NCBI GenBank assembly: GCA_902525035.1
Contig: CABZFN010000001.1
Location: 70,010 to 134,009, forward strand
DNA length: 64,000 nt
DNA from: an uncultured Alphaproteobacteria bacterium
Lineage (GTDB): Bacteria > Pseudomonadota > Alphaproteobacteria > HIMB59 > GCA-002718135
Reading direction: 5' to 3'
How positions within the stretch are numbered: position 1 is the first letter of the stretch; each line of letters starts with the position of its first letter. A model generated the notes under the pieces. That model was not told where the DNA came from. It was given only the letters and a program-made list of their open reading frames with translations, and ran no database searches. This document shows positions 1 to 62,304 of this stretch, one piece after another. The position numbers and the translations under genes are program-made.

Positions 1-496
1 ATTATCTAAATTATTATCTGAAATTGATTCTAATATAAATATATCTATTAGTTCAAATAAGATTGTTTTTATTATCGGTCACATAGTTTTTGTATCAAAA
101 TTAATTGATGGAAGCTTTCCAGACTATAAGAGAGTTATTCCTAATGATAATAAAAATATATTAAAAGTAAATAGGGATAAATTATTATCTGCTGTAGATA
201 GAGTTAGCACTATTGCTAATGAAAAATCACCTGTTATTAAATTTAAATTATTAAAAAATATTCTTAATTTGAATACTATAAATAATGAGAGTAGTACTGC
301 ATCAGAAGATGTAGAAATTAATTATAATGGAATTGAAATTGAAATAGGATTTAACTCAAAATATATAATGGATATAGTTAATAACCTAGAAGATAATGAA
401 ATATCAATTTACTTAAAAGATAATACATCCCCAGTAATAGCTAAGGAGAACTCAAATACAGATCTCATATACGTTTTAATGCCTATGAGAGTATAA
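1..496 (+). CDS. dnaN: DNA polymerase III beta sliding clamp, C-terminal part (5' end lies outside the window)
   Basis: Frame 2 is open from the window edge to TAA at 494-496. The translation ...LIDGSFPDYKRVIP...DLIYVLMPMRV matches the conserved clamp C-terminus. It is followed by recF-gyrB, the classic order. The track ORF 269..496 is only its tail. Confidence 0.9.
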   Translation, partial: LSKLLSEIDSNINISISSNKIVFIIGHIVFVSKLIDGSFPDYKRVIPNDNKNILKVNRDKLLSAVDRVSTIANEKSPVIKFKLLKNILNLNTINNESSTASEDVEINYNGIEIEIGFNSKYIMDIVNNLEDNEISIYLKDNTSPVIAKENSNTDLIYVLMPMRV

Positions 497-499
497 AAT

Positions 500-4044
<3,545 letters not shown>

Positions 4045-53890: not shown

Positions 53891-53980
53891 GGAGAGATGT
53901 GAGAGCGGTTTAATCAGCACGCTTGGAAAGCGTGTGTAGTAGCAATACTACCGAGGGTTCGAATCCCTCTCTCTCCGCCA
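53891..53980 (+). tRNA. tRNA-Ser (anticodon GGA), CCA encoded
   Basis: Hand-folded. Acceptor GGAGAGA/TCTCTCC, D stem TGA/TCA, anticodon stem CACGC/GCGTG with loop TTGGAAA (anticodon GGA at 53925-53927), a long variable arm, T arm GAGGG-TTCGAAT-CCCTC, discriminator G, then CCA. It closely parallels E. coli tRNA-Ser(GGA). Confidence 0.93.
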
Positions 53981-53984
53981 TAAA
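53909..53984 (+). repeat. Direct repeat copy 1 (attL-like): 3' 72 nt of tRNA-Ser plus 4 nt downstream
   Basis: The 76-nt string tttaatcagcacgcttggaaagcgtgtgtagtagcaatactaccgagggttcgaatccctctctctccgccataaa is identical to 56088-56163. Confidence 0.95.
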
Positions 53985-54019
53985 TTAAGATTTTTCTTTA
54001 ACGATTTTTCAACAAAAAT

Positions 54020-54086
54020 ATGTTTCGACACACATACGGCGCACTCACGAAACCTATTTCATCTCAACATTCCTCTTGGTTAGTGG
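54020..54086 (+). repeat. C/A-rich motif copy R1 plus conserved leader
   Basis: Core tcgacacacatacggcgcactcacg (54025-54049), followed by aaccta...acatt...ttggttagtgg. This is homologous to R2. Confidence 0.8.
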
Positions 54087-54099
54087 TAAGATAATTTGG

Positions 54100-54402
54100 A
54101 TGAAATATTTTTTAATATTTGTATTTAGTTTAACGGTAATAGGATCATTAATTTATGGATTGGGATATTTATATTTAACTAATAATCAAGATTTTAGTGA
54201 GACATCTCTAAATTTTTTTCAAATATATATTACTCTGTGGAAAATATTATTTAATTTATTCAATGACGAAGCTTCTTTATTACAAAATATATTTGCACTT
54301 ATAGTTTTTTGTATTTTTATTTATTTGCATCAACTCATTTATGCAACATGCAAATATATTTACGTATATATTAGGGATGGTGGAGAAGATAAATATGATT
54401 AA
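54100..54402 (+). CDS. Hypothetical small membrane protein (module 1, gene a)
   Basis: About 100 aa from the ATG at 54100 (the track ORF uses TTG 54076), with 2-3 hydrophobic helices (FLIFVFSLTVIGSLIYGLGYLYL; IFALIVFCIFIYL). The stop overlaps the next gene's start (ATGATTAA). Confidence 0.55.
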   Translation: MKYFLIFVFSLTVIGSLIYGLGYLYLTNNQDFSETSLNFFQIYITLWKILFNLFNDEASLLQNIFALIVFCIFIYLHQLIYATCKYIYVYIRDGGEDKYD

Positions 54403-54982
54403 AAAAGATAGAATAATTCCAAAAGATCTAGAGGATATTATTAGAAATTCTGAAAGACCCGAAGCTCCATTTGCAAATAAAGAAGTTAATAGAATAGTTG
54501 ATTTAAAAATTAAGGAATACGAGAAAACTTTTAATGAACTAACACATGATTTGAGTGAATTTCAAGTTAACAATTTTAAAGAAATTAATTCCATATATAA
54601 CACAATTGAATGGCATTTAAAAATACTCAAAAAGAATGATTATCAAAATCAAATGCTTCAATGGGAACATATAAATAAATTTGAAGACAACATTAAATCT
54701 ACTATTGAATTAACCGTTTTTACGCAACATGACTTAACGATACCAAATCATTATAATCTTAATTTGGTGGAATGGCATTATTTTTATAAAGATGATAATA
54801 TGGATAGTGACTTATTTAGTATAGATATAACTATCGATAATAAAAATATTAGAATAGATAATAATGAAATTTATAGTGAGAAAAGATATTCCGAAATGCT
54901 TGGTTTTTCCTCATCCATATTCAAATATTTATATTTGGGAGGTAATTTAGAAGATTTTAACAAACCTCCAACTTATCTTTAA
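54395..54982 (+). CDS. Hypothetical soluble protein (module 1, gene b)
   Basis: 195 aa from the ATG at 54395, preceded by GGAGA 8 nt upstream. No recognisable domain. The N-terminus MIKKDRIIPKD is paralogous to that of the 55378 gene. Confidence 0.6.
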   Translation: MIKKDRIIPKDLEDIIRNSERPEAPFANKEVNRIVDLKIKEYEKTFNELTHDLSEFQVNNFKEINSIYNTIEWHLKILKKNDYQNQMLQWEHINKFEDNIKSTIELTVFTQHDLTIPNHYNLNLVEWHYFYKDDNMDSDLFSIDITIDNKNIRIDNNEIYSEKRYSEMLGFSSSIFKYLYLGGNLEDFNKPPTYL

Positions 54983-54994
54983 TTAAATAAAAAT

Positions 54995-55060
54995 AATCCT
55001 CGACACACATACGACCCACTTACATACGTTTTTTAACCTAAACATTATTTTTGATTAGTG
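54995..55060 (+). repeat. C/A-rich motif copy R2 plus conserved leader
   Basis: aatcctcgacacacatacgacccacttacatacg (54995-55028), followed by aaccta-acatt-ttgattagtg. It starts 13 nt after the stop of gene 1b. Confidence 0.8.
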
Positions 55061-55080
55061 CTATTCTAAAATCTTTTAAT

Positions 55081-55371
55081 ATGGACTCTTATATAATTAT
55101 TTTATTAGTAAGAATATTTGTTGATGTAGCTTTTTTAGTAATTCTTTTTTTTGTTCTTATTTTTGGTTCTCTTACTTTTTTAAATCGTAATGGTATATAT
55201 AATTCTGATGCCGGCCTTTATTCATGGTCAATAATGTTAGGAGGAATGATAATAATTGACTATCTATTAGTTAAAAACAATATTCCTATAGGTTTTACTA
55301 ACCTATTAAAATTGCTTGGTTTTTTAGATATTGATTGTCAAAGAATTCATATATTTAGTAAATGTATTTAA
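55081..55371 (+). CDS. Hypothetical small membrane protein (module 2, gene a)
   Basis: About 96 aa from the ATG at 55081 (the track ORF uses TTG 55051), with two or three hydrophobic helices (IIILLVRIFVDVAFLVILFFVLIFGSL; WSIMLGGMIIIDYLL). Confidence 0.55.
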   Translation: MDSYIIILLVRIFVDVAFLVILFFVLIFGSLTFLNRNGIYNSDAGLYSWSIMLGGMIIIDYLLVKNNIPIGFTNLLKLLGFLDIDCQRIHIFSKCI

Positions 55372-55377
55372 AATTAA

Positions 55378-56004
55378 ATGACTAAAAAAGAAAAAATAAC
55401 AACAAAAGATTGGGCTTACCTAGGAGATGTTAAGAATGGTAAGCCACATGGTTTTGGAAAAAAAAATTTTTATGAAAATCTAGCAGAAAAAATATTAGAT
55501 AAAAAAGTAAAACTCTCTGACAAAGAATTTAATACAAGTTTCTGTGATAGTGGTTTGGATTATTTTTCCCAATATGTAAGAGGCTCAGAGGAAGGTCACT
55601 ATAGGGAAGGAAAATTGCATGGTCTATGTAAAATTGAAATTAAACAAATTGAAATAATTCAAGAAGAATTCAAATTAAATGAAGAAGGTTTTCTCTCAGA
55701 AGGATGGAGCCAACTTCACGCGATTTTTAATAGAGGAATACCTAATGGCAACGCACTACTTTATGGCCCTGAATATTCTTCAATGACCTCTAAAGATCAT
55801 CTTAATCCAAAATCTATTAATTATGTAAGTTTTTATTATGGTTCTTTATATAGTTTTGTAAATGATCTTGAATTTGATTCATCCCAAGTAATTGATGCTA
55901 GCAATGATTTAGAAAATTTTAAATTATCACAAATAGAAAATGAACCTAGTACAAGCGATGAAGTAGTAAAAAGATTAAAAGAAGTCGAAAAAAAAATGAG
56001 GTAA
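55378..56004 (+). CDS. Hypothetical soluble protein with MORN-like repeats (module 2, gene b)
   Basis: 208 aa. The start is 6 nt after gene 2a. It has MORN-like Y.G....GK.HG.G units (WAYLGDVKNGKPHGFGKK; GHYREGKLHGLCKIE). Confidence 0.6.
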   Translation: MTKKEKITTKDWAYLGDVKNGKPHGFGKKNFYENLAEKILDKKVKLSDKEFNTSFCDSGLDYFSQYVRGSEEGHYREGKLHGLCKIEIKQIEIIQEEFKLNEEGFLSEGWSQLHAIFNRGIPNGNALLYGPEYSSMTSKDHLNPKSINYVSFYYGSLYSFVNDLEFDSSQVIDASNDLENFKLSQIENEPSTSDEVVKRLKEVEKKMR

Positions 56005-56035
56005 TCCTCGTCGCACATACGACACACTTACACAC
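56003..56035 (+). repeat. C/A-rich motif copy R3
   Basis: aatcctcgtcgcacatacgacacacttacacac, overlapping the stop codon of gene 2b. It lies 52 nt upstream of the attR-like tRNA fragment. Confidence 0.8.
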
Positions 56036-56087
56036 CCGGTATTTACTTTTTCACGTTTAATTTTTCTTAGAAACCCTACACTTTGTA

Positions 56088-56163
56088 TTTAATCAGCACG
56101 CTTGGAAAGCGTGTGTAGTAGCAATACTACCGAGGGTTCGAATCCCTCTCTCTCCGCCATAAA
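56088..56163 (+). repeat. Direct repeat copy 2 (attR-like): orphan 3' fragment of tRNA-Ser (lacks the acceptor 5' strand and most of the D arm)
   Basis: 76/76 identical to 53909-53984. The upstream sequence (ctacactttgta) cannot form the acceptor or D stem, so this is not a functional tRNA. Confidence 0.95.
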
Positions 56164-56185
56164 ATTAGATATTTTAAACACTCAT

Positions 56186-58012
56186 CTAATAAATTATATT
56201 ATTTTTTAGCAAGTTTAGACAGCCAAGATTATTAGGATAAAAAAATATATAATTAAATTTTTTCTTTATTTTTTTAAAACATACTACTTTTTTTTCAGGA
56301 ATACATAATGGATCTATGTCTCCACAAAATAATATATAATTATCATCTTTCTGAATATTTCCAGCATACAAAATAGGAGTAGGTAATCTTATTTTTATTG
56401 TAAATCCATCAATATTTTTTTCATAATAATCTTTTCCAATAACTAATTTTTCAAAACTTTTCATCTCATTAAGTGAAATATTTAACTCATCTAAATTTTT
56501 TATTGTGTTCGGAATATTGTAAAAAAAATTACTAGAAAAAATTATTAATAAAAAAAAAATTAATATTTTTTTATTATAAAAAAATTTCTCATAATAAAAT
56601 CTCGTGATTATTTTTATTGAAATTAAACTAAAAAAAATTGAAAATAAAGCGTAACCAGCAAATCTTGATTGTGGAGTTTTGAAAAACCAAAATAGTATAG
56701 ATAACAAAATTAAAATAATAAGAAAATTTTCAATTTTGGTAACTTCAGGTTTTTTATTTGGTCTAAATTTAATAAAAATAAGAATAATAAAAATTAAAAT
56801 TAAACTTGTTATTGGAATATTTAATAACCTATTTATATCATGGTCCATTAACCAATATTTAGTCCAAAACCTTACATCAGATTTAATATAATCTTTATGA
56901 TTTAAAATATTTTCTGCTTCAGACCAAACAAATTTGTCACTTGTAGTATTTATTGATTTTGAATAAAACATATATCCCTTTGATGAAGCTTCAAGTAGAT
57001 TCATTCTTTTAGAAGTAATTTCTTGATCAAGAGTCCAATTAATTGTTTCTATACATGTGAAGTTTACAGGGTAGAAAATACAACCAGTATTTATTAAATT
57101 TTTTGTAAAGAACGTAAGTGATAAAATAATAATAAATATTGTAAATCTAAGATTATTTATAATTAATCTATTTTCTTTAATTAGTAAAAATATACAATAT
57201 AGTAACAAGGGAAGTATGAAGATGGAGTTTATTCTAAAGATTATTGAAGTAGTAAAAAATAATATTGAATAGAATAAATAAATATTGGACTCTTTTTTAT
57301 AATTATATTTTAATAAATTAATAAACCCAAGAGTTATAAATATTTGAGGAGGTACATCTGCGCCATGATCTTTTAATTTTGAAAATACAACTATTGAAAT
57401 AGCAAGTATAATAAAAGTTATTAATTTAACTTTTAAAAATTCTGAATTTAGAATTTCTATAGTTAAAAAAGAAATAAAACAAAAAAAAATTAAATAATTT
57501 AAAATAAAGTTTAGTTCAAATTTATATGGAGGTAAGGCAAATAACGCAGAGTAATTAAACCAGCTCATATATGGATTTGCTAAAACATCATTGAAATTTA
57601 CTAATCCAAAAATAATTTTATAACTATTAATCAAGTTAAGATATGGGAGATGGTGATAGTAAAAATCTTCATGTAAATTATTACCCAACAAAAAAGGAAA
57701 TAGAAAAATTGTTATAAAAAATAAAATCTTTAGAGAATTATTAATATTAATTTTCTTGGAATAAATTATGAAAAATAATAAGCCTAGTAAATTAACAACT
57801 ATAATTATTAAAAAATCTATTTTATAAAAAAAATGTATGAATATTCCAATAAAGGTTAATAATGGTATAGATAGTAGATATAATTCAAATAGATTTGAGT
57901 TATCATTATTATTAAATATAAGTTTTTTGAAAAAAAAACCATATCCAATTGATGAAAAAAAAATTAAAAATAAATATAGATAAATAATTATTATTTTGTA
58001 AATTATAAACAT
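56186..58012 (-). CDS. Large polytopic membrane protein, GT-C-like glycosyltransferase / glycan polymerase candidate
   Basis: 608 aa with more than 12 hydrophobic helices, an acidic/aromatic first-loop motif (LHEDFYYHH) and a C-terminal soluble region of ~100 aa. It is divergent from sugar-nucleotide modification genes. Confidence 0.4.
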   Translation of the reverse strand: MFIIYKIIIIYLYLFLIFFSSIGYGFFFKKLIFNNNDNSNLFELYLLSIPLLTFIGIFIHFFYKIDFLIIIVVNLLGLLFFIIYSKKININNSLKILFFITIFLFPFLLGNNLHEDFYYHHLPYLNLINSYKIIFGLVNFNDVLANPYMSWFNYSALFALPPYKFELNFILNYLIFFCFISFLTIEILNSEFLKVKLITFIILAISIVVFSKLKDHGADVPPQIFITLGFINLLKYNYKKESNIYLFYSILFFTTSIIFRINSIFILPLLLYCIFLLIKENRLIINNLRFTIFIIILSLTFFTKNLINTGCIFYPVNFTCIETINWTLDQEITSKRMNLLEASSKGYMFYSKSINTTSDKFVWSEAENILNHKDYIKSDVRFWTKYWLMDHDINRLLNIPITSLILIFIILIFIKFRPNKKPEVTKIENFLIILILLSILFWFFKTPQSRFAGYALFSIFFSLISIKIITRFYYEKFFYNKKILIFFLLIIFSSNFFYNIPNTIKNLDELNISLNEMKSFEKLVIGKDYYEKNIDGFTIKIRLPTPILYAGNIQKDDNYILFCGDIDPLCIPEKKVVCFKKIKKKFNYIFFYPNNLGCLNLLKNNIIY

Positions 58013-58018
58013 ACTTAA

Positions 58019-58888
58019 ATGAAAAAAATACTTATCACTGGGGGAGCTGGTTTCATAGCTTCAAATTTAATCAAATTAATTTTAGATAATAATTCAAAAG
58101 TTTTCATATATTCTTACGACAATTATTATTCTGGTTCTCGAAAAAATCACATTAAATCAACTAAAGTAAAATATATTAAAGGAGATACTCAAAAAATAAA
58201 TAAAAACAGATTTTTAAAAAAAATAAATTTTGATCACGTTTTTCATTTTGCAGAATTTTCAAGAATTGTCCCTAGTTTTGATAATTATGATACTTGTATT
58301 AAAACTAATACATATGGAACCTTTGAAGTTATTAAATTTTGTTTAGAGAAAAAAGCAAAATTAATTTATTCAGCATCTTCAAGTACAATTGGTAATAATA
58401 AATTTCTTTCACCTTATTCCTGGTCAAAATATGCAAACAATGAGTTGATCAAAAATTTTTCAAAATGGTTTGGTTTGAAATATGTTATAGTATATTTTTA
58501 TAATGTATACGGACCAAATCAAATAACTAAAGGACATATGTCGGCTGTTATAGGTATTTTTGAAAAACAATACTTATTAGGAAAACCATTAACGGTTGTA
58601 AAGCCTGGGACTCAAAAAAGAGATTTCACTCATGTTGAAGATATAGCTAATGGGACATATCTAGCAGCAACTAAATCTTTAAACTCTGAATTTCACTTAG
58701 GTTCTGGAAAAAACTACTCTATTATAGAAGTAGCTAAAATGTTTAAAAGCAAATATAAACTCGTATCAGAACGGCCTGGAGAAAGATTTTATAGTCTATC
58801 AAAATCAAATAAAGCAAAAATACAATTAAAATATAGAATTAAGAATGATTTAATAAGTTATATAAGAAATTTTATAAATAAGAAATAA
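58019..58888 (+). CDS. NAD-dependent sugar-nucleotide epimerase/dehydratase (extended SDR)
   Basis: 289 aa with the Rossmann motif ITGGAGFIASNL and the catalytic YSWSK (YxxxK). Confidence 0.75.
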   Translation: MKKILITGGAGFIASNLIKLILDNNSKVFIYSYDNYYSGSRKNHIKSTKVKYIKGDTQKINKNRFLKKINFDHVFHFAEFSRIVPSFDNYDTCIKTNTYGTFEVIKFCLEKKAKLIYSASSSTIGNNKFLSPYSWSKYANNELIKNFSKWFGLKYVIVYFYNVYGPNQITKGHMSAVIGIFEKQYLLGKPLTVVKPGTQKRDFTHVEDIANGTYLAATKSLNSEFHLGSGKNYSIIEVAKMFKSKYKLVSERPGERFYSLSKSNKAKIQLKYRIKNDLISYIRNFINKK

Positions 58889-58889
58889 A

Positions 58890-60323
58890 TTGAAGAATTT
58901 ACAAACATACACAATTATAGGTGCAGGACCTTCTGGTCTTGCTGCAGCAAATGAACTATCAAAAAACAAAAATAAAGTTACCGTATATGAAAAGGCTGAT
59001 TTAGTTGGTGGTTTAGCCAGAACAATAGAATACAAAAATTGCAAATATGACATAGGACCTCACAGATTTTATACTCTCAATAAAGAGGTAAATGAATTTT
59101 ATAAAAATACTTTAGGGCCAGATAGTATTACGGTTAAAAGATTAACTAGAATTTTTTATGATAAAAAATATTTTTATTATCCACTTTCACCATTTAATAC
59201 ACTTATAAACCTAGGAATAATAAAAGCGTTTAAGATACTTACAAGCTATTTTTTTTCTAAAATAAAATCAATATTCAATTATAGCAAAATAAAAAATTTT
59301 GAAGATTGGGTTATTTCAAATTTTGGATCTGAATTATATAAAACTTTTTTCAAAAGTTATACCGAAAAAGTATGGGGAATTGAATGTAAAAATATTAGTA
59401 AAGATTGGGCTGCACAAAGAATTAAGAATATAAGTTTTTTTAATGTATTTTTTAATTCTATAATTAAGAAAATAAGAAAGAAAAAAGTAAAATCTCTTGT
59501 AGATTCATTTCAATACCCAAAATATGGAGCTGGTTTTTTTTATAAAAAACTATCTAATAAAATCATAGAAAATGGTGGAAAGATTGAACTTAATTCAAAG
59601 CTTACTCAAATAAATCATTTAGATTATAAGATTAAAAATATTGTTATAAAAAATAGTACTGGAATAGTAGATATAGAAACAGATTTTTTTATTTTTAGTA
59701 ATCCTTTTACTGAAATTATAAGACTATTAAATCCTAAACCACCGCAAAATATTCTAGAGGCATGTAATAATTTAAAATATAGGCATCACATAGGAGTTAA
59801 ACTTGAAATTCATGGACCTATTTTTCAAGATAATTGGATATATGTTCATGATCCAAGAGTTAAAATGGCTAGAATTTCTAATTATAAAAACTTTTCTCCA
59901 TACATGTCGAATAGTATTAATATAAATCCTATTACAGTTGAGTATTTTTGTTTTGAAAATGATAAGATTTGGAACTTGACAGATCAAGAAATTATATCAT
60001 TTGCTATTAAAGAATTAAGATTAGCTGGTATTATTGATTTTAATAATACCGTTAAAAATTCTTTTATAGTGCGTTCATTAAATGCATACCCGGTAATAGC
60101 TAAAGATTACCAAAAATATGTATTAGAAATAAGAAATTATTTAAGAAAATTTAGCAACTTATTCCCTATAGGTAGATCAGGAATGTTTAAGTATAATAAT
60201 CAAGATCATGCTATTGCGACAGGAATGTATATGGCCAGAAATTTAATTAATAAAGATTTTGATATTGATATATGGAATATTAATAGTGAAGGAGTTTATG
60301 TGGAAGGTGAAATAAAAGATTAG
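58890..60323 (+). CDS. FAD/NAD(P)-binding oxidoreductase (amine-oxidase / UDP-galactopyranose-mutase-like fold)
   Basis: 477 aa with the N-terminal dinucleotide motif IIGAGPSGLAAA...VYEK. TTG start 1 nt after the SDR stop. Confidence 0.6.
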   Translation: MKNLQTYTIIGAGPSGLAAANELSKNKNKVTVYEKADLVGGLARTIEYKNCKYDIGPHRFYTLNKEVNEFYKNTLGPDSITVKRLTRIFYDKKYFYYPLSPFNTLINLGIIKAFKILTSYFFSKIKSIFNYSKIKNFEDWVISNFGSELYKTFFKSYTEKVWGIECKNISKDWAAQRIKNISFFNVFFNSIIKKIRKKKVKSLVDSFQYPKYGAGFFYKKLSNKIIENGGKIELNSKLTQINHLDYKIKNIVIKNSTGIVDIETDFFIFSNPFTEIIRLLNPKPPQNILEACNNLKYRHHIGVKLEIHGPIFQDNWIYVHDPRVKMARISNYKNFSPYMSNSININPITVEYFCFENDKIWNLTDQEIISFAIKELRLAGIIDFNNTVKNSFIVRSLNAYPVIAKDYQKYVLEIRNYLRKFSNLFPIGRSGMFKYNNQDHAIATGMYMARNLINKDFDIDIWNINSEGVYVEGEIKD

Positions 60324-60324
60324 A

Positions 60325-62304
60325 TTAATTTATTTTTTTACACCAAAACTGGTACATACCTGAAAAAATTCTTGAATTATTTTTTTCAAAATCTTCCCAT
60401 TTATCTAGATCATATAGATCATTTGTCTGATTATATTTTTTTTTAAATCGATCTAAAACATATGTGTCTTCAAATCCTAAAAAAATTAATCCTAACTTGT
60501 TCATATGACTTCTTATTTTTTTAATTGTAAATCTATGCTCCTGTACATGAAATAATAAATCTCTGACTCCACTTGTTGAATAAAAATCTGGACTAAATTT
60601 AACACTATCCCATGCTGTTATGTTATTTTCAAAAATATCTTTTCTAAAATTAATAATATTTTTTTTTGTAATTTTGATTCTTAAACTATTTATTTTTTCT
60701 CTTATATTTACAATATTTTCTCGAGCTTTTTCACTATATAAACCAATTAACATCAGAGCATCTTTTTTTAAACAATCAGTTATGCATTCCCATCCTACTA
60801 GTGGATCAGCCATATGATGTAGAACACCAACAGATTCAATAATATCGAATTTTTTATCCAATTTTCTTAAGTCTAATAAATCTCCTTGAATAAAGTTTAT
60901 ATTTTTAAAATTTAATTCTTCGGCTTTTCTTTTTGCATAGGATAAACTATTAAAACTTAAGTCTAATGCAAAAATTTCTGAATTTTTGTATTTAGAAGCT
61001 GTAGTTATTGCGTGTTGTCCAGTACCACATCCAGCGATTAAAATTTCTGGATTTTTAGAAAAATTTAATTTTTTAAAATCTACATTTAAATTTATATTTT
61101 CAATTACTTCATTTATAACTCTGGGCTCAATACTTAAACCAAGATTAGTCCATCTAGGATATGGATTTTCTTCATATTGATTTTTGACTTTTATTGATAT
61201 TTTATCATTAATTTTTGAAATTGATTTTATTTTTTGGATATATTTTTTTTCTTCATTATAATTTCTATATTGTAATATAAATGTCTCTTTTAATTCATTT
61301 GAAGGATTTATTTTTTTACACCAATCAAAGCTATATAATGGAGAATAACAAGATAATATAAGTATTTCTAAATCATTTATTTCTTTTGTATTAATATTTT
61401 TTTTAATTCTTTCATTAATCGTATTAACTTTAAATCTTTCTTCATCTGTCTCATAATATACATATTCATTTAAAAAACATTGAGCTGATAATGAAATTAA
61501 GAATTTCAAATAAATATTTTTAAAATTTAAATTATAAATTTGATTTAAAATTTCATTTCTAATTTTAATGAAATTTTTTTCAATGTAATAATTAGAAATA
61601 GGACAAACTTTCATAAATTTTAACAAAAGTTTATTCTTGTTTAATAATTCTATTATTTTATCCAAATTTTTTGGATAGATGTTATTTTCTAATAAAAAAA
61701 AATTATCTTTTAAATTTGTATTTAAAAATAAACCATTTATTACATTTGTAGCTATAGCATTTGGTCGAACAATTATTTTTTTTTCAAGAAGATATAATAA
61801 AAATTTATTTATGTATTTATTCTTCTCATCTAATATGTAATGTTGAAGAACTCCGGATAAATTGTAAAATCCTCTTATATAATTTGGGTTTATGGTGAGT
61901 GTTTGTATATAATAATCAAGAGCTTTTTTATTTAAATTTCTTTTTCTAAATATATTTCCTAAGTTATTGTAAGCCTTATAATAACTCTTATCTAATTCTA
62001 TAACTTTTTCATAATTTTTGATTGCATTGTCTTCTTCACCAAGTTTGTTATAAATATTTGCTAGGTTATAATATCCGTCATTGTATTTTGGGTTTAAATT
62101 TATAACTTTTATAAATAGTTTTTTTGCTAAAAAGTAATTTTTTAGTTCAGTATGAATTACTCCTGAAATATTATTTATTAAGATTGAATTAGGGTAGTCA
62201 CTGATAGTTCTATTAGATAAATCAAGAGCTTCTAAATATTTTTTTTTATTAAATAAGAATATTATTTGTTCAATAATATTTTTATCAGGTTCTTCTTTAA
62301 TCAT
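60325..62304 (-). CDS. TPR-repeat protein fused to a class I SAM-dependent methyltransferase
   Basis: 659 aa. The N-terminus has ~5 TPR-like units (A...Y.KVI.L.P.Y..AY.NLGN), and the C-terminus has methyltransferase motif I (ILIAGCGTGQHA) and post-I (ALDLS). Confidence 0.7.
   Translation of the reverse strand: MIKEEPDKNIIEQIIFLFNKKKYLEALDLSNRTISDYPNSILINNISGVIHTELKNYFLAKKLFIKVINLNPKYNDGYYNLANIYNKLGEEDNAIKNYEKVIELDKSYYKAYNNLGNIFRKRNLNKKALDYYIQTLTINPNYIRGFYNLSGVLQHYILDEKNKYINKFLLYLLEKKIIVRPNAIATNVINGLFLNTNLKDNFFLLENNIYPKNLDKIIELLNKNKLLLKFMKVCPISNYYIEKNFIKIRNEILNQIYNLNFKNIYLKFLISLSAQCFLNEYVYYETDEERFKVNTINERIKKNINTKEINDLEILILSCYSPLYSFDWCKKINPSNELKETFILQYRNYNEEKKYIQKIKSISKINDKISIKVKNQYEENPYPRWTNLGLSIEPRVINEVIENINLNVDFKKLNFSKNPEILIAGCGTGQHAITTASKYKNSEIFALDLSFNSLSYAKRKAEELNFKNINFIQGDLLDLRKLDKKFDIIESVGVLHHMADPLVGWECITDCLKKDALMLIGLYSEKARENIVNIREKINSLRIKITKKNIINFRKDIFENNITAWDSVKFSPDFYSTSGVRDLLFHVQEHRFTIKKIRSHMNKLGLIFLGFEDTYVLDRFKKKYNQTNDLYDLDKWEDFEKNNSRIFSGMYQFWCKKIN

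Follow-up and report, generated by a model that had tools for sequence, protein, structure and literature searches.

A 64,000-nucleotide stretch of DNA from an uncultured alphaproteobacterium (GenBank assembly GCA_902525035.1, contig CABZFN010000001.1), here called the window, carries a 2,103-bp insert with four open reading frames (ORFs) at 53985-56087, bracketed by an intact tRNA-Ser(GGA) gene and a displaced copy of the 3' part of that gene. Based on comparison with marine metagenomes and related genomes, the insert probably represents two miniature integrative cassettes of one family, which carry no recombinase and were inserted into the 3' part of tRNA-Ser(GGA) by a recombinase acting in trans. 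SAR11 bacteria, the host group concerned, have large flexible gene pools with almost no recognisable mobile elements, and the route by which genes are gained and lost in their hypervariable regions has been a question since 2007. The cassette family may help explain the swapping of genes in these streamlined genomes, and its conserved arm module, with a 24-nt motif and a built-in leader, is a concrete handle on the mechanism.

The composite insert and its cassette family

The intact tRNA-Ser(GGA) gene lies at 53891-53980 on the plus strand (Rfam score 53.1 bits) and was the single tRNA of this kind detected by ARAGORN and Rfam. Its positions 19-90 are duplicated. The first copy of the direct repeat (53909-53984, plus strand) runs from the D-loop to the 3' end of the tRNA plus 4 nt on the attL side, and by direct reading it is identical at 76 of 76 positions to the second copy on the attR side (56088-56163, plus strand), which begins in the D-loop, lacks tRNA positions 1-18 and is an orphan 3' fragment. 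A repeat search of the window stretched the similarity to 87 nt at 97% identity (53909-53995 and 56088-56174). A perfect repeat of 76 nt in 64 kb of DNA at 29% G+C is far beyond chance; no more tRNA fragments or remnants of the flanking arms were found elsewhere in the 64-kb window. Searches with Pfam, PADLOC and PHROGs revealed no integrase, excisionase or other mobility domain in the four ORFs of the insert. The original prediction, made from the letters of the window, was right on these points: it had described a perfect 76-bp duplication, an orphan second copy and 2,103 bp without a mobility gene.

The same prediction had read the insert as a single unit, and this reading does not hold. 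The insert is composed of two cassettes fused at a motif-only junction. The motif, M (TCGNCNCACATACGNCNCACTYAC), is a G+C-rich tandem repeat of 24 nt present on the plus strand at 54025, 55000 and 56008; these are the only copies in the 64-kb window, for a chance expectation of 0, and they bound two modules, each made up of a leader and two small genes. From left to right on the plus strand, the tRNA is followed by a 44-nt left-arm spacer (53981-54024; alignment A3), the motif copy M1 (54025-54048; TCGACACACATACGGCGCACTCAC, two tandem 12-nt half-sites), the leader of cassette 1 (54049-54099), ORF1 (54100-54402), ORF2 (54377-54982), M2 (55000-55023), the leader of cassette 2 (55024-55080, a diverged copy of the leader module), ORF3 (55081-55371), ORF4 (55378-56004), M3 (56008-56031, 3 nt past the ORF4 stop codon), a 56-nt right arm of type A (56032-56087; ACACCCGGTATTTAC...CCCTACACTTTGTA; alignment A4) and the tRNA fragment. 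M2, the junction between the cassettes, consists of the motif only and has no tRNA fragment. The two cassettes have the same layout and a common 80-nt junction, and their proteins are unrelated. Thus the earlier description of repeat and insert stands, but it had overlooked the 24-nt motif repeated three times inside the insert, the two-module layout and the variable DNA beyond the fragment (56164-60331).

ORF1 (100 amino acids, aa) and ORF3 (96 aa) are small membrane proteins, the former without a family match. ORF2 (201 aa) has no assigned function; its family comprises 11 clusters, every one of them on marine contigs, and its AlphaFold2 model (pLDDT 37.7) was not used. ORF4 (208 aa) contains a MORN repeat, the sole Pfam match in the insert cargo, and its relatives were found as cargo in the metagenome contigs L099 and L123. 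PADLOC gave no match on the insert cargo, and PHROGs gave nothing significant on the cargo, with one marginal match (E = 0.007) to a family of unknown function. The second genes of unrelated cassettes open with ~11 conserved codons (MIKKDRIIPKD / MTKKEKITTKD, 82% nucleotide identity) and differ in the remainder; these starts are located at 54395-54427 and 55378-55410 of the window and from 3943 in L099 and 2418 in L123. The final ~10 codons of ORF4 and of a cargo gene in L124 are also similar (...KEVEKKMR / ...KEVEKQMK), immediately before M.

Short-read assembly graphs do break within the 76-nt repeat, and the second tRNA copy might have been a mis-join or a collapsed repeat, a danger to which the original prediction had drawn attention. 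However, the insert was recovered at 99.9% identity in three independent Logan assemblies (L095-L097), whose contigs end exactly 30 nt inside the right repeat, as expected of a graph branch at k = 31. Sequencing runs with this insert are ERR12716960, ERR14837232 and ERR14837233. A Tara contig (L109, 98.9%) runs from the tRNA end through cassette 1 and M2 into the beginning of cassette 2, and many unrelated contigs, such as L112, L117 and L118, continue through equivalent orphan fragments into the host flank. An assembly artefact is effectively excluded, its probability being close to nil. L096 and L097 begin at window position 54011, which is 27 nt past the repeat and inside the left spacer, not in the tRNA; these starts imply a graph branch at that point, and M1 and cassette 1 probably stand behind more than one left-hand sequence in those samples.

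The contigs of the family were collected by one metagenome scan with the M pattern, which returned 30 marine metagenome contigs, ~28 of them genuine. M lies ~45 nt past a tRNA 3' end or ~56-64 nt ahead of a tRNA fragment in ~24 contigs, and both ends of one unit are visible in several. The canonical unit consists of a tRNA (full or fragment), a conserved spacer, M, a leader, 0.8-1.7 kb of cargo, a second M a few nucleotides past the stop codon, a conserved arm and a tRNA fragment. Most units are single cassettes bounded by tRNA segments, and tandem arrays with complete junctions (M, arm, fragment, spacer, M) were found in L102 and L127. The tRNA-Ser fragment begins at approximately position 19-22 in every contig, most fragments are near-perfect, and two variants of the tRNA variable arm were seen. 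The 33 cargo segments fall into 25 clusters, which encode for the most part small proteins that are exported or located in the membrane, proteins with MORN repeats and type IV pilin-like proteins, together with one hydrolase and NUDIX pair; this cargo resembles the gene content given for SAR11 hypervariable regions (PMC2217521). Pilin- or pseudopilin-like cargo genes (MNRKGFTLIELLIVV...) are located at 5954-6193 of L107 and 1360-1566 of L127 (oriented copies), and pilin genes are listed for the SAR11 hypervariable regions HVR1 and HVR4 (PMC2217521).

These units also bear on the proposal, made in the original prediction, that the insert is a recent deletion remnant of a larger element, be it a prophage, a tycheposon-like element or an island. 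Erosion does occur in the family: some units are degenerate and some fragments are truncated (the first unit of L127; L116, L118, L123 and L121). However, the ~28 contigs share a spacing of 0.8-1.7 kb between motifs and intact end modules of one kind, their ~25 cargos are unrelated, and none contains a fragment of a recombinase, which indicates that small size is the normal state of this cassette family. Moreover, the cargo has no phage-family match, and the repeats and arms of the window are intact. The remnant explanation is therefore effectively excluded and retains a very small probability.

Alignments of 15 left junctions (A3) and 15 right junctions (A4) revealed that M is almost invariant and that the arms are conserved, whereas the neighbouring cargo is unalignable. 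The 44-nt spacer is conserved past the tRNA end in all Ser-type units, and a shorter homologous form is present in units at tRNA-Gln. The right arm exists in two diverged versions, A and B, and the type A arm is conserved ahead of the tRNA fragment in independent contigs. M is present in both arms at fixed distances. In 18 of 37 motifs, drawn from contigs of which not all are independent, the two tandem 12-nt half-sites of M (CGNCNCAC[A/T]TA) agree in both variable bases, compared with an expectation of 7.1 after shuffling, which suggests that the halves of M are homogenised or repeatedly regenerated.

The leader (CAACATTYCTC NNN GTTRGTGGTARGA) starts invariably 16 nt past the left-hand M. A single close match to it exists in the window, and 80 unrelated alphaproteobacterial loci contain no close match. 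In cassette 1 it can be read as a candidate promoter, with a -35 element TCAACA (54064-54069), a 17-nt spacer, a -10 element TAAGAT (54087-54092) and the ATG of ORF1 at 54100. Across the units, the first ATG lies 6-10 nt after the -10 element, and in L115 a canonical ribosome-binding site (AAGGAGG) and an ATG come after the leader. From this arrangement, the leader may act as a promoter. A generic scan for promoters and terminators found no terminators.

Occupied sites, empty sites and the second target

Close relatives were found through homologues of the gene to the right of the variable interval, a conserved TPR-methyltransferase gene (60325-62304, minus strand), and genome loci of 22 kb were compared. 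In L156 (left flank 94.1% and right flank 84.8% identical to the window) and L158 (91.0% and 87.5%), this gene stands directly after a full tRNA-Ser. In L157 (right flank 90.4%; left flank outside the locus), the full tRNA-Ser is followed by 3 kb of glycosylation-type genes and then by the flank. M, leader, arms and tRNA fragment are all absent from these three loci. The sequence after the full tRNA in L156 and L158 (GCCA followed by TAACTAATTAATTAATTTTTTTACACCAAAACTG...) is that found after the tRNA fragment in the occupied contigs L117 and L112 (GCCA followed by TAAATAACTATTTAAATTTTTTTACACCAAAATTG...), which is the classical relation of attB to attR. This relation indicates that the units entered the tRNA gene in its 3' part, where the copy they carry restored the tRNA and the original 3' part was moved away along with the flank behind it. 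It also shows that M and the arms are borne by the element.

Occupied and empty sites thus both exist. The attL/attR footprint claimed in the original prediction is supported by the flank shared between empty and occupied sites, and the polymorphism it had proposed to look for was found in both forms: three close relatives possess the full tRNA-Ser without a unit, and other contigs, e.g., L117, hold unrelated cargo between the same repeats. Its assumption of a SAR11-type host is also supported, since a more distant homologue of the right-flank gene is annotated as Pelagibacteraceae, which fixes the host lineage as Pelagibacteraceae-related.

Horizontal spread of the cassettes is evident from two contigs. 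In L118, cassette 1 stands alone at 98.6% nucleotide identity (ORF1 100% and ORF2 97.5% identical in aa), accompanied by a B-type arm and a decayed fragment, and the flank protein of this background shares 42% identity with that of the window. Conversely, the flank of L117 is 88.5% identical in aa to that of the window, and the cargo of this contig is unrelated.

The same end module is used at a second tRNA gene. M and homologous arms flank tRNA-Gln(TTG) and its fragments in L111, L115, L124, L105 and L103, and the tRNA-Gln fragment starts in the D-loop, at approximately position 17-23, matching the start of the tRNA-Ser fragment. The shared D-loop start at the two genes points to one recombination mechanism with an exchangeable core specificity. 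A tRNA-like 3' end of a third kind occurs in L113. In L105 (592-2841, oriented), a full tRNA-Ser(GGA) with a different 5' half is followed by the hydrolase and NUDIX genes, M, a Gln-type arm and a tRNA-Gln fragment; this contig could be a hybrid of two target sites or contain two adjacent sites.

Proposed mechanism of insertion and alternative explanations

The proposed mechanism can be outlined as follows. Each unit would carry an attP-like module of roughly 250-300 bp (~290 bp as reconstructed), whose core is a 72-76-nt tRNA copy from the D-loop to the 3' end and whose two conserved flanking arms each hold M. The left-arm M would be fused to the promoter-like leader, from which between one and three small genes of the cargo would be expressed. 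Recombination of the module with the chromosomal tRNA would be carried out by a site-specific recombinase provided in trans, in all likelihood a tyrosine integrase, so that an intact tRNA is restored at the left end and the original 3' part and the host flank are pushed to the right end. Units would accumulate in tandem, and their junctions would erode by deletion or by recombination between motif copies; such erosion would have joined cassettes 1 and 2 at their motif-only junction. Arm-dependent attP sites of tyrosine integrases of the lambda type have repeated sites in both arms. The ~290-bp module resembles such an attP, and M is therefore assigned, by analogy, as a candidate arm-type site for the recombinase or a binding site for an accessory protein. 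The recombinase would presumably be a tyrosine integrase with its crossover near the anticodon stem-loop, and a core that extends from a few nucleotides 5' of the anticodon stem to the tRNA 3' end would fit the anticodon-loop class of tRNA-targeting integrases (Williams, 2002, cited in PMC8477408).

A number of observations weigh against this mechanism. No recombinase was found in the 64-kb window (Pfam, and a tyrosine-recombinase signature scan of all window ORFs), in the longer M contigs (Pfam on their ORFs) or in the 22-kb genome loci. IMG/VR contained no match to the tRNA-Ser core, to the left spacer or to the extended right arm, and a blastn search of the reconstructed ~290-nt circular junction against GenBank phages returned generic tRNA similarity only, with no matching attP. 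No excised circular form was seen, the Logan contigs breaking off inside the repeat. The contigs were ascertained by M, so that the sampling is biased toward M-bearing units. A generic sigma-70 promoter scan does not flag the leader, and M, with its fixed place ahead of a promoter-like leader, could also be a site for a transcription factor. Finally, the identity between the window and L118 stops inside M, L118 being a hybrid with an A-type left and a B-type right side, and motif-only junctions occur at M2 of the window (also in L109) and in L107; such junctions at or near M are not explained by an integrase acting on the tRNA core alone.

The search for a helper was likewise negative in the collections covered: an 18-mer of M gave chance matches only, a scan with the tRNA-Gln core gave only unrelated phages of higher G+C (33-69%) without M, and no autonomous partner element was found at the same att site. 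Mobilisation in trans, one of the two possibilities raised in the original prediction, is plausible. The satellite-like character attached to it was not upheld, as the arms and the tRNA-Ser segment are absent from the viral and phage collections and no helper-exploitation genes were detected with PHROGs and Pfam. One lead was followed and rejected: L099 encodes, just 5' of tRNA-Ser (401-1573, minus strand), a 390-aa protein with P-loop and helix-turn-helix regions (PF27228), and the homologues of this protein have no M, tRNA or integrase nearby. Its ~70 marine homologues often lie beside restriction-modification, HNH nuclease or autotransporter genes, and the protein may mark small mobile islands of another kind.

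The junctions provide further information. Apart from the L118 breakpoint and the motif-only junctions, L121 has a junction without a tRNA fragment and without one motif, and L126 and L121 carry additional leader copies without M. Based on these cases, arrays undergo erosion and recombination at M or close to it, whether by homologous recombination on the short shared sequence or through some activity at M, and the 2.1-kb insert of the window is a composite derived from such an eroded or recombined array. In L126 (734-1832, oriented), ~1.05 kb of extra DNA follows the first leader in comparison with L106, L122 and L125; it is bounded by a 26-nt direct repeat and includes a small ORF, an antisense gene for a 248-aa NAD(P)-binding protein and two further copies of the leader, both lacking M.

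Homologous recombination is the main rival to insertion by a recombinase in trans. In this explanation, the tRNA fragments and arms persist as relics from a past in which integrases were at work, and spread now proceeds by DNA uptake and RecA-type exchange, for which the tRNA, arms and M (~150-200 nt per side) serve as portable homology anchors without any site-specific recombinase. It would account for the failure to find an integrase in the window, the longer contigs or the genome loci, and it agrees with PMC11796062, which reports a single integrase and no canonical mobile elements in SAR11 islands. Also in its favor are the breakpoints at M (in the hybrid L118 and at the motif-only junctions of the window and L107), the reappearance of cargo pieces in a mosaic fashion (the start of ORF2 in L123, that of ORF4 in L099, and a segment common to L112 and L117) and the variable gene order from lepA to the flank among relatives, as block replacement would give. 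However, the first duplication of the tRNA cannot be created in this way, and the presence of the same arm module with a matching tRNA-Gln fragment, beginning at the same D-loop position, is left unexplained. In addition, the conservation of near-perfect noncoding fragments and arms across ~25 cargo types suggests selection on the ends, and the tandem arrays with complete junctions (L102, L127) are the product expected of repeated site-specific insertion. We regard homologous recombination as an unlikely explanation, though one of appreciable weight.

It was also considered that M itself is the crossover site of a cassette recombinase, as in integrons, with tRNA, spacer, M, arm and fragment forming a fixed landing platform and cassettes (leader, genes and M) being inserted and shuffled at M. 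The window has n + 1 motifs for n cassettes, motif-only junctions exist in the window, L109 and L107, the window and L118 cease to be identical within M, and the half-sites agree more often than expected, all of which such a system could produce. The empty sites make it less likely, since they are entirely without M, and no cargo-free platform (tRNA, M and fragment) was present among the M-selected contigs. The tRNA fragment retains the original host flank, which places the primary crossover in the tRNA. Furthermore, folding of the junctions is not attC-like and does not exceed that of shuffled sequences on either strand (z = -0.84 to +0.07), the cassettes bring their own leader, unlike typical integron cassettes, and most units are single cassettes between tRNA segments. 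This explanation is considered improbable.

Starting again from insertion into the tRNA core in trans, a broader proposal can be put forward tentatively, and we hold it to be possible rather than probable: the end module may be the cis half of a dedicated SAR11 cassette-capture system, in which one or more trans recombinases, chromosomal or phage-borne, recognise M and both insert and excise single-function cassettes of 1-2 kb at several tRNA genes. If so, it would be a tRNA-anchored functional analogue of the integron and the source of much of the small-scale gene flux in the hypervariable regions of the most abundant bacteria of the sea.

Relation to known systems and the surrounding variable region

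Partial tRNA repeats that mark small integrase-less cassettes have been reported for SAR11 gMED (PMC11796062), 'Ca. Actinomarinales' (PMC7771536) and Methylophilaceae (PMC10872708); for SAR11, four islands with 'no canonical mobile genetic elements' and one integrase are described (PMC11796062). The units described here are similar to these additive flexible genomic islands, or 'tRNA-direct-repeat' islands, as portrayed there: small cassettes lie beside a tRNA gene with no integrase or canonical mobile gene inside, they are exchanged between divergent genomes, and the host is of the SAR11 type. A small tRNA-adjacent cassette, a partial tRNA repeat at its end and strain-variable content were all found at the present locus. 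Unlike those islands, for which the main texts give a tRNA repeat only, the units possess an end module of ~250-300 bp with two arms, M and a leader, which is the same at two tRNA genes and absent from empty sites. tRNA-repeat cassettes in SAR11 islands have already been reported, while the conserved arm module appears to be undescribed in the main texts of those papers.

Cis-mobilizable elements (CIMEs) of Streptococcus thermophilus, reportedly described by Pavlovic and colleagues in 2004 and Bellanger and colleagues in 2011, are flanked by attL and attR sites that look functional, contain cargo only, reportedly move with the aid of an autonomous element at the same att site and accumulate by tandem accretion. 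They measure several kb to tens of kb and derive from known integrative and conjugative elements with an identified integrase. The present units have attL and attR and no recombination or transfer genes, and the tandem arrays of L102 and L127 are compatible with CIME-type accretion. In contrast to CIMEs, the units are 1-2 kb long, have no known parent element or integrase, use a tRNA gene as target and belong to a genome type nearly without mobile elements. By analogy, the units would behave most like a very small CIME-type element.

Several other systems share some features. The tycheposons of Prochlorococcus encode their own deep-branching tyrosine recombinase and other hallmark genes (bioRxiv 10.1101/2020.12.28.424599) and are 4-200 kb in size, as quoted in PMC10872708. 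They resemble the present units in the streamlined marine host, integration at tRNA genes with partial tRNA repeats and tandem arrays in islands, and their niche or defence genes can be likened to the cargo here. Assignment to this class was rejected: the units are 1-2 kb and contain no tyrosine recombinase, replication or excision hallmark genes of their own by Pfam, PADLOC and PHROGs. Integron cassettes are likewise minimal units of one or two genes with a recombination-site module, stacked at one site with the recombinase elsewhere. An integron cassette array was rejected because there is no attC-type hairpin and no IntI/attI/Pc platform, each unit has its own leader, and the primary crossover lies in the tRNA; in SAR11 hypervariable regions, no attC or integron signature was found (PMC2217521). 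A phage satellite (PICI, PICMI) was rejected on the lack of packaging, capsid-redirection and replication genes and on the absence of the tRNA-Ser core and arms from IMG/VR and GenBank phages. Temperate pelagiphages infect the same host group, insert into tRNA genes by means of a tyrosine integrase and reconstitute the tRNA; their cores are 11-46 bp, the elements 30-40 kb, and the integrase lies beside attP (10.1101/410191; PMC8477408). The core here measures 72-76 bp. The arms and the tRNA-Ser core have no match among phage sequences, and neither tRNA-Ser(GGA) nor tRNA-Gln(TTG) is among the pelagiphage targets named in the available texts of these two papers.

If the arm module is a functional recombination site, the 24-nt motif would be a search handle for all such cassettes and their autonomous relatives, M could be used as bait for its binding protein, and the ~250-300 bp would define a minimal integration substrate. 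Gene units as small as 1 kb with their own promoter would then be a currency of transfer in the most abundant bacteria of the ocean.

The DNA to the right of the tRNA fragment is also variable. The segment 56164-60331 (4.2 kb, 17-29% G+C) encodes a 608-aa polytopic membrane protein (minus strand), a NAD epimerase (plus strand) and a FAD oxidoreductase (plus strand); it is absent from L117 and L112, and other genes occupy this place in L118 and L157. No repeat or arm remnant was found at its right end (60331). The whole interval from lepA to the methyltransferase gene is a hypervariable region of glycosylation type with the tRNA inside it. A genome scan anchored on lepA gave one close relative (L015) among the matches listed, which at first appeared to lack the tRNA; this is explained by an island between lepA and the tRNA, as in L156 and L158. 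In L015 (4563-5749), L156 and L158, lepA is separated from the 5' side of tRNA-Ser by a different island, whose first gene encodes an antisense DUF8201-type membrane protein 24% identical to the 608-aa protein of the window. In the window, the tRNA begins 5 nt after lepA and the island lies 3' of the tRNA fragment, so that the tRNA is found on opposite sides of the island depending on the strain. In L104 (170-889), ~720 nt separate the end of lepA from tRNA-Ser, a further sign of DNA gain on the 5' side of the tRNA.

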